Positions 29,953 to 61,666 of a stretch of DNA of 64,000 nt are shown piece after piece. Origin of the DNA: Tubiluchus corallicola (lineage: Eukaryota; Animalia; Priapulida); contig JAQGDQ010000803.1 in assembly GCA_030141605.1 (NCBI GenBank), positions 1 to 64,000 of the forward strand. Reading direction: 5' to 3'. The position numbers and the translations under genes are program-made. Under the pieces are notes generated by a model. That model saw only the letters and a program-made list of their open reading frames with translations. It searched no databases and was not told the origin of the DNA. Each line of letters begins with the position of its first letter. Positions within the stretch are counted from its first letter, which is position 1.

Positions 29953-32900
29953 ATGTCAGCGAAAGGCAACAGGGGAAGTAAAAGGGGTTGTTGCTCTTTA
30001 ATTGAGGAAATCGGAGGGTCACATCAGACTGAAGCAGAAGTACCAGGTGAAAATGGCAGAAGTGCTTCAAAAAGACCTCGTGGGTGGGTGTGGCTTAATG
30101 AAACTAAGGATTTATATATGAAACTAAGCATTATATAAAACATGCTTTCTGTCATTTAATGCCTTGTTCTTTGTAACTTTTGACAATTTTGTTTACTCGT
30201 TCATCAGATTTTGTTTACCGAAATGTGTAACTTATTTTCAACGTTTTCACATTTCTTGATTAAGTGTGACTCAAACCAGCGAATTTACTTAAGCTGAATT
30301 AAATTATTTTGTGAGTTTTCAAATTAAATAAATTTTGTTTTAACACAAAATGTTTAAATGATTTTGTTTTGGTTAGAACTCTTAAAACATTACTTAGATC
30401 TAGTACCACTCATCATTCTTCTTTAGGCGACCAGTAACTCCAGGTAAAGCAAGAAAAGTTTCTAAGCTGATGTTGAGTACTTGGCAAGCATTGATTCAAA
30501 ACGAAGGCCGAGTGAGGTGTCCACTTAAACAGTGCGGTCGAGCTTTTCTATCTGTTGCTGGCATAGGTGCACATTTTCCATATTGCAATGGAGTAAGTCA
30601 CGTACACAGTACAGTATTTGCTATCTCTTACTTGTGATTTGCCATTTAGTGGTGTTTTTTTTCAATTCAATAGATTTATTTCGCAATAAGCATATACTTA
30701 TGCATTACAATTGCATCGATAATCAGAGTTTATTAATACAACATTATGATACAATTCATGAATTCTGCACTAGAGACATAAGAAGCTAGCTTATGCTAGG
30801 CCACTAGAATTAGTTACGAGAAAAATTACAATATATTACTAACGGTTAGTGTGAGTTACAGTGGGCGTTAGTAGTATTAATTTTCATAATTACGATGTAA
30901 ACTGATGGTCGGTACAGAGAAATGATAAATGCTTTAACACATTCGCTAAGCATATGTGGAGGAGGCAACACTTGTTTAGACTATATGGAGGTGCGCATTG
31001 CAGGTATATATACGGATGGGAAGTAATAAAAATATTATTATACGTTGTAAATTTATCATTTCTTAATTACTATGACTGCCATATCTTGACATATAAGCAA
31101 CGTCCAGCAGTGCATATTTCTATATATATTACAGTTCTATAGGTGAAAAGCTTTGGAAAACTTTTATTAGATATTGTTTGATTATAAAAGCTGCCATTTT
31201 GTTAGATGTTTGTTCATCACAAAGTAAAGATTGATTAATTAGCAATCTTAATTAGTGATTAGTAATTAGCAAATGAAAGCTTTTAATTCGTTTTCTTGTA
31301 ATGTGTCACATGGTGGCATTCAATTTCCATGCTATTAAAGAACATGGTGAACAGTAGTTGACAGTTTTGCCTAAAATGGCTACCGTTTTTATCAGCTTCT
31401 ATTTGCACCTACTTCGGGGGTGTGCAAATTGCGGCCCGTCGAGAGAATTTGTGCGTCCCGCGAAGAGATTTGTCAATGAAAGTGCGGCCCGGGCGATTAA
31501 TTGAGTGTATCCAGCTGAAGTCCGTCCCACGATCCCAAAGATAGTGCGGGTAGTTTTTTCTACTAGATCGGATGCCATTAACCCTTACAAGATGGTTGTA
31601 GCTTAATGTTACTGTACTACACAGACTATGTGATACTCATTACTAATATGCATTGTAATGAAATTACCACTATCTGTCCTGAAAGTAGAAATATATGGTT
31701 TGTAATATAAATTTTAATAACTTCTAAAATAGTTTCTTGAGTGTAGTAGTAATGATGTACGCAGGTCGGATGCAAAAAAATCGTGATTAGGTCTTTCTGT
31801 ACTTGGCTCCTTGATCAAACTGCCTGTGGCCCGCAGGAATTGTGGGAAAGTTTAATGTGGCCCGGCTAGTCAGATAATTTGCACACCCCTGCACTACTTC
31901 AATGTGATATTTAAGCTCTAATACATTTGTTGCTCCATTTACTTTAGTTTTCAAGTATGTCTTCAGAGCTGGAATGTGGAATCTGTCATGCAGTGCTGGC
32001 TGATGAACCAGCACTTGTCTGTCACACTCAGTTAGTGCATACTGATAAGGATAAACGGTTGTTGGACAATGGTATGTTGACTCACATTCAGGGAAGTAAC
32101 CGAAATTGAAATTACACATATAAACACAAATTTATAATAATAATAATAATAATAATCTTTATTTAAAGTCGGCTTTTGGGTCAACAATTAACATTAACTC
32201 AAAGAGCTATTATCGCCGACTATAAATAATAACCTACAACTACATAACAGAGACTATTATTACCCCACTTTTACAATAAATACCACGCACCAGGCTGGGC
32301 AACAGCAGGTACCATTATAAAGTCTTTGGTACGACCCGGCCGCTGCTTCGAACTCACGACCTCCCAAACGGAAAGCAGACGCGTTACCACTAGACTAAAC
32401 CGTCTGGTCTTTATGAAACATAGGAAACCGAAGCGAAACGGAACTGAAATCATTTTTGCAAAACCAACTTCTATGAAAACTGAAAAAATTTTGAAATAAA
32501 TAAAATACTTTGTTTTTGCTTGTTTGCTTCTATTTGCTCTGATACAAACTTGATGAAGCGGCAAAAAAATCTTAATCGGAAAAGTAGAACGATGTTTACG
32601 GTTAAAGATCGCGCTGCTTTGAAAAAATTTACAAATTTTATTTTATTGCCTGTATTTCATAAATTATAAGAGTAAATTTGGTTTTCTTTAAATTACGCTT
32701 TGATATTTCGGTTGATTGTGCCTGGAGACCCTTACGCTTCACAGTTACCAGCGCTGAAACTATGCCAAATTGCCGTAAAAAGCATGCTACACATAGTACA
32801 AAAACTTAATTAAACAATATTTTCGTTTTATTTGAACTATTTTAGCCAAGATTTTTGAGCAATTTTTAACATAGAGGAGAAAAAAGATAAGCTGGATAAG

Positions 32901-60100: not shown

Positions 60101-61666
60101 AATCTTCCCCGGTGACCGTTAGCTGCGGCCATTTTGATGGCTGGTCGTTTGAAACAAGTTTAGGCAACCATGTGTAAACTTTGAAAAAATAATCACAGCA
60201 TTCGTGGCACACACTTCAGTGACTCAGCAAAAGTATAAATTACTGCATCTTGTCAATAAGATCAATAATGCATTTTATGAGGAATGAATGGTGCGCACTG
60301 GGAAGGTTAGTCAGTGGTGCACACAGGGAAGGTTAGTCAGTGGTGTACACTGGGAAGGTTAGTCAGTGGTGCACACTGGGAAGGTTAGTCAGTGGTGTAC
60401 ACTGGGAAGGTTAGTCAGTGGTGCACACAGGGAAGGTTAGTCAGTGGTGTACACTGGGAAGGTTAGTCAGTGGTGCACACTGGGAAGGTTAGTCAGTGGT
60501 GTACACTGGGAAGGTTAGTCAGTGGTGCACACAGGGAAGGTTAGTCAGTGGTGTACACTGGGAAGGTTAGTCAGTGGTGCACACTGGGAAGGTTAGTCAG
60601 TGGTGTACACTGGGAAGGTTAGTCAGTGGTGCACACAGGGAAGGTTAGTCAGTGGTGTACACTGGGAAGGTTAGTCAGTGGTGCACACTGGGAAGGTTAG
60701 TCAGTGGTGCACACTGGGAAGGTTAGTCAGTGGTGCACACTGGGAAGGTGAGTCAGTGGTGCACACTGGGAAGGTTAGTCAGTGGTGCACACTGGGAAGG
60801 TGAGTCAGTGGTGCACACTGGGAAGGTTAGTCAGTGGTGCACACTGGGAAGGTTAGTCAGTAACATTTTGCAAGTTGGAGCAAATATTTTAAATTACTAA
60901 GAATTTCTTTTCTAGTTACATAAAACTTTTAACAGGTAAGCATAATAGGAAGCAACAATTTTGTGTGGCATATTTTTGGGATGCAATTTAAAATCACCTT
61001 TTCTTCCCCTCCAAGTATTCTCCATATATTAATTCTACTGGTATATATATATATATATATATATATATAAGATTCCAGGCTACAGCTCGGACGGCGGCAC
61101 CATTTGCGGCGATCTATATATCAAACGAAAGGTCTCGATTTAGTGTCGTGCCATTGGGGGTTTATTTTTCGAATCAGGCCCACTGCGAGGATGGGGGGGG
61201 GGTGTGAAAAACCTGAAAAAATGGCCATTTTTCGGCCGTTTTTTGCAAAACTTATACCTCTTATTTCTGAAGAATGGGAACGGGCCATGGGTGCCAGCTA
61301 TGGATAGATAGCCCGTTCAGTGGTGGGTGTCATAGGCGTATATAGAATTATACTCTATCTATAACCTTATAACTTTAATTCAGTAAAAGCTGCTGCTGCG
61401 GCTTTGCGTTAGGTAAATAAACGAACACTAGGTAGAACGTTCACGTATTATTGTTTTTACGCAAAATTTTTTGCGGGGCCTTTGCTAGTTTTTTACTAAT
61501 TATATTGTGTTTCTTACTGCAGGCAGAATAGCATTGTTCAACCTCGTCACCGACTCGCCATTGCTGAAAGTTGCTCAGGACGATGCACAAATCACTCTCT
61601 ATCCTTACTGCACGTTTCTTGCCGTTACCGGATGCGTGAAAAGTTTAGCTTGGTGTCCAGCTACAG
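51191..61666 (+). CDS. GTF3C2: GTF3C2 (TFIIIC110/beta)-like WD40 part of the same gene. Exons 51191-51374, 53162-53376, 55937-56113, 59079-59260, 61523-61666; continues past the window
   Basis: FPEWVP...YLPEESESP, YAGGPIWGAAWCPIP...QYIAV...GKGLIQIW, LQWCPSGCYD...PRLGLLAAACTDGKIRIISIPHP, VAVGYADGRIALFNLVTDSPLL...LYPYCTFLA...VKSLAWCP: collinear with GTF3C2 motifs. Confidence 0.88.
52102..52471. mobile_element. hAT-like MITE
   Basis: CAGGGGTGGAACTAG / CTAGTTCCGGCCCTG termini, TSD TAAAGGAG. Confidence 0.75.
53162..53376 (+). CDS. GTF3C2: GTF3C2 exon
   Basis: AGGPIWGAAWCPIP...QYIAVS...GKGLIQIW. Confidence 0.88.
53442..53561 (+). rRNA. Full-length 5S rRNA-like sequence (head of a SINE, no T-run terminator)
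   Basis: GACTACGGCC...TGATCACCGAAGTTAAGC...CTGGTTAGTACTTGGATGGGTGACCGCCTAGGAATACCAGGTGCTGTAGGCTT, 120 nt, internal control region boxes intact. Confidence 0.8.
53444..53985 (+). mobile_element. 5S rRNA-derived SINE (SINE3) with RTE-like body
   Basis: 13-bp TSD CAGAGAAAATAGA at 53431-53443 and 53986-53998; 5S head followed by a GC-rich body. Confidence 0.8.
54075..54816. mobile_element. hAT-Charlie-like MITE
   Basis: CGGTGGTTCCCAACCTG / CAGGTTAGCAACCATTG termini, TSD TTCTAAAG/TTCTAAAA. Confidence 0.7.
55076..55379. mobile_element. hAT-like MITE
   Basis: CAGGGCCGGATTA / TAACCCAGCCCTG termini, TSD TTCATCAC. Confidence 0.75.
55937..56113 (+). CDS. GTF3C2: GTF3C2 exon
   Basis: HLQWCPSGCYD...PRLGLLAAACTDGKIRII. 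Confidence 0.9.
57997..58882. repeat. 42-bp tandem array, about 21 copies
   Basis: TTAAACATACTATTWGCTATTGTGTCTACTTTTGGCTACATA. Confidence 0.95.
59079..59260 (+). CDS. GTF3C2: GTF3C2 exon
   Basis: IPHP...LCMQWLPGFQHDKVAVGYADG. Confidence 0.85.
60289..60861. repeat. 26-bp tandem array, about 22 copies
   Basis: CAGTGGTGYACACWGGGAAGGTTAGT. Confidence 0.95.
61043..61488 (+). mobile_element. Non-autonomous Helitron-like element
   Basis: Starts in (TA)n; subterminal hairpin CGCAAA..TTTGCG about 10 nt before terminal CTAG|T; partial copies at 57230-57480, 27110-27190 and 43292-43420 (minus strand 3' end). Confidence 0.6.
61523..61666 (+). CDS. GTF3C2: GTF3C2 exon
   Basis: RIALFNLVTDSPLLKV...LYPYCTFLAVTGCVKSLAWCPAT. 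Confidence 0.85.

Follow-up and report, generated by a model that had tools for sequence, protein, structure and literature searches.

A composite TFIIIC110 gene with a ZNF512-type finger arm in the priapulid Tubiluchus corallicola and its probable relation to vertebrate GTF3C2 and ZNF512

Introduction

Does a single gene of the priapulid Tubiluchus corallicola encode both a ZNF512-type zinc-finger array and GTF3C2, the TFIIIC110 subunit of the RNA polymerase III factor TFIIIC, and, if so, how did vertebrates come to have the two as separate genes? The question is raised by positions 29953-61666 (forward strand, as are all exons below) of the first 64,000 nucleotides of contig JAQGDQ010000803.1 (assembly GCA_030141605.1), a stretch referred to hereafter as the window. 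A first-pass annotation, made from the sequence alone, had proposed that one spliced frame joins the two modules there, and had offered either an ancestral composite that split in vertebrates or a lineage-specific fusion as the explanation. Taken as a whole, our analysis makes it quite probable that the locus encodes a 19-exon TFIIIC110 with an AT-hook and four pairs of C2HC and C2H2 fingers, that this layout is ancestral and that vertebrates split it into GTF3C2 and ZNF512/ZNF512B.

Results

One open frame spans both modules

An independent rebuild of the locus, from three-frame views and a scan for phase-compatible exons, joined 19 exons between 29953 and 61666 into 2956 nt, or 985 codons, with no stop codon; all 18 introns are GT-AG and their phases match, so that the annotated frame of 19 exons and about 985 codons up to 61666 was reproduced. 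On this sequence evidence there is little doubt that the locus is a single gene joining both modules. The composite GTF3C2/TFIIIC110 gene (profile A1, E 5e-187) continues at its 3′-end past the window: the model reaches profile position 895 of 1155, leaving about one fifth of the protein outside the window. No additional exon was found within the window beyond exon 19; the last part of the window is largely a 71-base tandem array (61617-63278, 23 copies). Within the 71-base unit are the final 50 bases of exon 19 together with the splice donor of that exon, and the donor is therefore repeated many times downstream.

The 3′ half is GTF3C2, as annotated. A profile of 18 GTF3C2 proteins from vertebrates matches window residues 632-984 with an independent E value (iE) of 1e-78. 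Exons 15-19 (51191-51374, 53162-53376, 55937-56113, 59079-59260 and 61523-61666) encode the pre-propeller segment of GTF3C2 and the first blades of its WD40 propeller. Human GTF3C2/TFIIIC110 (8cli_C) was the only solved structure matched by exon 16 (E 1.7e-12) and the best one matched by exon 17 (E 3e-5); exon 15 alone had no match in PDB, and scored 28.9 bits on a vertebrate-only GTF3C2 profile. When a profile of the relatives described below was compared with structures, TFIIIC110 was found at E 6e-163 and the next match at 1e-54. The conserved segment directly before the propeller is present in the window protein; segment and propeller are common to human TFIIIC110 (PDB 8CLI chain C) and yeast tau91/Tfc6 (9GC3, 8FFZ, 2J04).

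The 5′ half proved to be of the ZNF512 type, with the AT-hook and four finger pairs that had been proposed. A vertebrate ZNF512 profile, built from 30 of 120 fish proteins, matches window residues 319-633 (iE 1e-39) and again residues 56-235, and a single-pair ZNF512 profile scores the four C2HC+C2H2 pairs at 15.7-44.5 bits. Exon 1 (29953-30083) holds the presumed start codon and the first part of the single AT-hook, which is interrupted by intron 1 and finished by exon 2. Finger pair 1 (residues 63-126) is encoded by exons 2 and 3 (30427-30592 and 31948-32071), and scores 30.5 bits on the vertebrate ZNF512 pair profile and E 5e-4, below the cut-off, with Pfam ZNF512_C2HC. A long basic and acidic low-complexity linker follows in exons 4 and 5 (33766-33849 and 35990-36447); exon 4 (84 nt, phase 1-1) is without homology support and could be removed with the frame intact, and exon 5, which has no Pfam match, supplies at its end the first residues of pair 2. 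Pair 2 (residues 320-383; exons 6 and 7, 37558-37656 and 38151-38246; 15.7 bits) is colinear with pair 1 of vertebrate ZNF512. Pair 3 (residues 406-467; 37.2 bits) and the start of an inter-finger helix lie in exons 8 and 9 (41670-41840 and 43092-43267), and pair 4 (residues 551-618; 44.5 bits; zf-C2H2_4, E 7e-5) in exons 11 and 12 (46650-46754 and 47684-47845). Single-exon Pfam matches of the window's finger exons were all below the cut-offs; ZNF512_C2HC, matched below its cut-off by a single window exon, is above it in the relatives P0084, P0079 and P0115. The finger part does not stand alone, as a ZNF512-like protein without WD40 repeats would, and its frame continues into GTF3C2.

Between pairs 3 and 4 lies a basic helix of the RR-x-AA type (about residues 494-511; 43246-45600), interrupted by intron 9 and completed in exon 10 (45571-45658). 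It is matched separately by a vertebrate GTF3C2-only profile (iE 9e-5) and by a ZNF512-only profile; the RRxA-type motif that had been ascribed to the human proteins is real, and vertebrate GTF3C2 and ZNF512 have it as one and the same segment. In the predicted model of a relative, P0143, folded finger pairs and a lone helix are carried on low-confidence linkers before the propeller; this model, which is of the relative and not of the window protein, has 8cli_C as its best fold match (E 9e-51). A motif for NuRD binding, iNIM or RK(x)xxPxK/R, is given for ZNF512B in one report (PMC11602157). Unlike ZNF512B, the window protein has no match to it, the linker of exons 4 and 5 included, and the matches in the relatives are mostly AT-hooks.

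A Ser/Thr/Ala-rich frame of 343 codons (38964-39992) was considered as an exon and rejected, being part of a 60-base tandem array in intron 7 and without a Pfam match. This 60/120-base array (38961-40102) keeps two forward frames open, of 343 and 392 codons.

The exon 14/15 junction is not a module border

Exons 13 and 14 (49256-49340 and 49975-50083) carry the acidic linker and the beginning of the conserved GTF3C2 pre-propeller segment, and are followed by intron 14 (50084-51190; phase 2, GT-AG), which contains a high-copy dispersed repeat. The junction at 50083|51191, where the two halves had been thought to meet, stands as an open frame with splice sites, but not as a border between modules: the end of exon 14 already aligns with the segment ahead of the propeller in vertebrate GTF3C2. 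Shuffles equalled the score that exon 14 adds in 6 cases out of 500 with the vertebrate profile and in 1 out of 500 with the invertebrate one, which is modest support. By sequence, the stronger evidence is in the relatives, whose alignments are unbroken over the junction: a single BLAST alignment joins window residues 320-985 to P0115 of the acorn worm Ptychodera (E 6e-89), and another covers residues 362-983 against P0077 (E 3e-77). The intron 14 donor scores 6.9 bits (other donors 1.6-11.2; leave-one-out matrices throughout). A scan for start exons running from an ATG to a donor with a score above 5 found none in introns 13 and 14, and two short candidates in intron 12, which bears out for introns 13 and 14 the claim that GTF3C2 has no start exon of its own here. 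The first Met of exon 15 falls after the conserved pre-propeller motif, and intron 14 contains two ATTAAA and no AATAAA. At the junction, the contigs of run X1, whose kind is not on record, are mostly repeats together with one unspliced piece over the exon 14 donor (depth 2.8), and run X2 gave one 34-base piece; both runs are compatible with splicing or its absence.

The layout recurs in nine animal groups

A full HMMER search with exon 16 returned 268 proteins, the best 150 of which were used; 59 of these, with at least 250 upstream residues, and one oyster cluster member formed a set of 60. Names, the tree and the closest named relative served to divide it into 21 vertebrate-type and 39 other proteins. 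Word-based searches gave no match for exon 16, against the 268 of HMMER, and five true relatives among 26 matches for a 20-row profile. Scored with a vertebrate-only ZNF512 finger profile (300 shuffles, maximum 5.0 bits), the finger module reached at least 15 bits in 31 of the 39 non-vertebrate-type proteins versus 1 of the 21 vertebrate-type ones. The single proteins with both ZNF512 fingers and GTF3C2 WD40 repeats, which the annotation had suggested looking for among invertebrates, were thus found from sponge to amphioxus: in Oscarella, Actinia, Owenia, Sinanodonta, Saccostrea, Argonauta, Orussus, Centruroides, Palaemon, Oratosquilla, Antedon, Anneissia, Ptychodera and Branchiostoma. The nine groups represented are sponge, cnidarian, annelid, mollusc, chelicerate, pancrustacean, echinoderm (crinoids), hemichordate and cephalochordate. 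In Ptychodera (XP_070533169), Branchiostoma (CAH1248446), Actinia (XP_031550880) and Oscarella (EP00118_P004684), the fingers, the helix, the acidic linker and the WD40 repeats follow one another as in the window protein, and the acorn worm and amphioxus proteins have about 28-30% identity to the window protein over 660 residues. The invertebrate composites are recorded either as uncharacterized or simply as GTF3C2; on the pair profile most of them score no more than three pairs, against four in the window protein.

The record for Oscarella carries the label of a complete open reading frame, P0077 has 1519 amino acids on a contig of 5,399 bases and P0104 has 979 on one of 3,072 bases, leaving almost no room for introns; these three argue against the merging of gene models. 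Recurrence in nine groups contradicts a lineage-specific fusion, and with the count of 31 of 39 against 1 of 21 it favours the ancestral composite; we regard it as very likely that the joined layout is ancestral for animals. P0128, a GTF3C2 relative that is not animal-like, has one weak ZNF512-type finger (residues 335-359, 7.2 bits), from which the link to fingers may be older than animals.

Vertebrate GTF3C2 and ZNF512 share the helix

Vertebrate ZNF512, as seen in 120 ray-finned fish proteins, has three colinear C2HC+C2H2 pairs, with a helix between the last two, and then an acidic tract. Unlike the window protein, which is joined to GTF3C2 and has a further, far N-terminal pair, it stands alone: none of the 120 matches the GTF3C2 half. 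In the composites too, the basic helix sits between the last two finger pairs, upstream of pair 4. A helix profile made from 20 non-vertebrate rows (1000 shuffles, maximum 3.3 bits) gave 16 of 20 vertebrate GTF3C2 proteins a score of 7.5 bits or more, and 10 of the 20 a score of 12 bits or more; the four that stay below 7.5 bits have short upstream parts. It falls on residues 177-214 of human GTF3C2, which has the helix in common with the window protein. ZNF512 has a diverged helix in the equivalent position, and residues 290-331 of gar ZNF512 align with the helix in the GTF3C2 part of a milkfish protein at 45% identity (E 8e-4). Since a single cut could not leave the helix in both daughters and pair 4 in ZNF512 alone, a duplication with complementary loss is the likelier course. 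The proposed ancestral composite that split in vertebrates is therefore upheld as to ancestry and not as to a simple split; vertebrates probably arrived at two genes by duplication with complementary loss.

The milkfish protein, P0144 (Chanos chanos XP_030628070.1), is annotated as GTF3C2 and is the one vertebrate-type protein of 21 with fingers. In it, a complete ZNF512 precedes a complete GTF3C2, with two helices and two acidic tracts, one per half. P0144 was rejected as a retained ancestral composite, since it contains both whole genes; from its sequence, it is likely to represent tandem neighbours merged in one model or a read-through transcript. A quick tree built on the finger region puts fish ZNF512 in one group with the amphioxus composites and an annelid row that has a long branch (Shimodaira-Hasegawa-like approximate likelihood ratio test, SH-aLRT, 95). 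Human ZNF512 and GTF3C2 are, as we take it, both at 2p23.3.

Discussion

A possible role for the finger arm

In human tauB, according to two reports, the propeller of TFIIIC110 is the partner of TFIIIC90 and keeps TFIIIC220 on the B-box, and TFIIIC110 touches DNA downstream of the box (PMC11811891; PMC12409998). The WD40 propeller of the window protein would pair with TFIIIC90 and hold TFIIIC220 in the same manner, while the fingers and AT-hook, tethered on a flexible N-terminal arm, would read the DNA beside the B-box, and the arm might add to avidity or to the choice of sites, be it at tRNA genes, at repeats derived from tRNAs or at extra-TFIIIC boundary sites. By analogy, the chances that the fingers bind DNA beside TFIIIC sites seem to us evenly balanced. 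After the duplication, one copy would have kept the fingers and lost the propeller, giving the ZNF512 lineage, and the other, giving GTF3C2, would have lost all its fingers but retained the propeller, the acidic tract, the AT-hooks and the helix. A wider proposal can be put forward tentatively: that TFIIIC, for the greater part of animal history, had a finger arm of its own that read repeats and was linked to heterochromatin, and that ZNF512/ZNF512B, which initiate pericentric heterochromatin, are this arm, freed by a tandem duplication in early vertebrates.

Alternatives and points against the composite

Several observations weigh against the composite and its history as set out above, and some of them suit other explanations. 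At the locus, the gene model rests on genomic DNA, the acceptor of exon 15 is weak (2.2 bits; other acceptors -9.0 to 13.3), and an unspliced exon 14 donor leads to an immediate stop (TAG, 50082-50084). With the two ATTAAA of intron 14, that acceptor and that stop would fit two adjacent genes or transcripts, a finger-only protein ending at the TAG and a separate GTF3C2; this is very unlikely, given the lack of a start-exon candidate in introns 13 and 14, the late first Met of exon 15, the GTF3C2-like end of exon 14 and the relatives that align unbroken over the site. A minor finger-only isoform may nevertheless exist beside the full form. Among the relatives, most of which are gene models, 8 of the 39 non-vertebrate-type proteins score below 15 bits (two amoebozoans and one fragment without fingers, one protein whose only finger is weak, and four in which the finger region has diverged or is truncated), and in some assemblies the annotation is fragmented (Branchiostoma belcheri P0156/P0157, Centruroides sculpturatus P0303/P0304). 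The finger arm is also labile, because mollusc and annelid rows (P0117, P0150, P0178 and P0091) are without pair 4, with the helix kept, a loss that parallels part of the finger loss of vertebrate GTF3C2. Moreover, the named proteins exclude ZNF512B, tetrapod ZNF512 and those of tunicate, lamprey, ctenophore, placozoan and choanoflagellate. That the joined proteins reflect a lineage-specific fusion, or gene models in which neighbours were repeatedly merged, is nonetheless extremely improbable: the milkfish record shows that such merges occur, but the identical order, single helix and linker are met in nine animal groups, also in frames that fill short contigs or are labelled complete.

As to the vertebrate split, the helix profile on its own reached 12 bits in none of the 120 ZNF512 proteins (median 1.3), and because of this poor score the homology of the ZNF512 helix rests on its colinear position and one pairwise match; both trees are quick and midpoint-rooted, and the window protein is unplaced. 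An ancestral composite could then have undergone a clean fission in vertebrates, through a new stop and a new promoter, the shared helix being a chance or convergent basic motif. The motif is short, its ZNF512 version is weak by itself, and the milkfish model has the halves in the ancestral order; a single cut, however, gives the helix to one daughter only, while vertebrate GTF3C2 has the helix without pair 4, ZNF512 has both, and the milkfish model has two helices and two acidic tracts. We therefore hold a clean fission to be unlikely, and prefer duplication with complementary loss. With regard to function, the evidence consists of sequence and structure models. The arm could be joined and ancestral and yet have no part in steering TFIIIC on DNA, serving as a surface for protein or RNA contacts, for example with heterochromatin enzymes or in self-association. 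The fingers of ZNF512B are described as driving oligomerisation and chromatin aggregation (PMC11602157; PMC13458389) and ZNF512/ZNF512B are reported to recruit SUV39H (PMC12920882), and finger number differs between groups; against this, the pairs have retained their metal ligands across animal history and accompany AT-hooks, and the NuRD-binding pattern is absent from the window protein. We rate such a contact surface as possible though doubtful.

Comparison with known proteins and implications

The four finger pairs in the N-terminal arm set the window protein apart from 20 of the 21 vertebrate-type GTF3C2 proteins and from both named amoebozoan ones, which have none; yeast tau91 is not known to have such fingers either. 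ZNF512B is presented in a 2026 paper as vertebrate-specific, with four C2HC+C2H2 pairs and an extensive internal region of low complexity (PMC13458389), and this published description, on which our comparison is based, fits the four pairs of the window protein. Binding of ZNF512/ZNF512B to pericentric repeats, with SUV39H recruitment, is cited in PMC13458389 and PMC12920882.

If the proposed history is correct, ZNF512 and ZNF512B, the latter called vertebrate-specific, would gain an origin inside a general RNA polymerase III factor, and TFIIIC110 of human and yeast, the basis of the tauB structures, is likely not to be typical of animals. On the wider, tentative proposal, invertebrate TFIIIC would couple B-box binding to heterochromatin boundaries marked at histone H3 lysine 9 (H3K9) or to the silencing of tRNA-derived repeats, and a finger-only isoform like ZNF512 could already be released through the stop that the exon 14 donor forms when unspliced. 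The barrier or insulator role of TFIIIC at extra-TFIIIC sites is still described as unexplained in PMC12409998; a finger arm that can be deleted in insects, crustaceans and amphioxus makes one explanation of this role directly testable. What is new is that the layout extends to sponge and anemone, together with the evidence of duplication and complementary loss; the Tubiluchus locus itself adds a further member to a layout that is widespread. The layout is common in public gene models and apparently undescribed: literature searches, with most subscription papers and supplements outside their scope, found no description of the composite, and the publications naming both GTF3C2 and ZNF512 are, by title and the start of the abstract, association or expression studies.

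Other features of the window

The gene next to the composite, on the reverse strand (24731-26794), encodes Nibrin/NBS1 in a single intronless frame of 688 codons (Pfam FHA, BRCT, NIBRIN_BRCT_II and Nbs1_C). It and the GTF3C2 gene stand in head-to-head orientation at a distance of about 3.2 kb. The genes of the region are otherwise intron-rich, and the Nibrin frame is possibly a retrocopy that replaced its parent. Four single frames from about 6850-14650 (reverse strand) had no match in Pfam; several hydrophobic exon-like frames in that region resemble one membrane transporter, presumably of the SLC18B1/MFS kind, and two of the exon-like pieces are alike, which hints at a tandem copy. The high-copy dispersed repeat noted in intron 14 (50160-50700) is present in several introns, also near 31400-31800 and 41860-42200, and has a very high summed contig depth in run X1.

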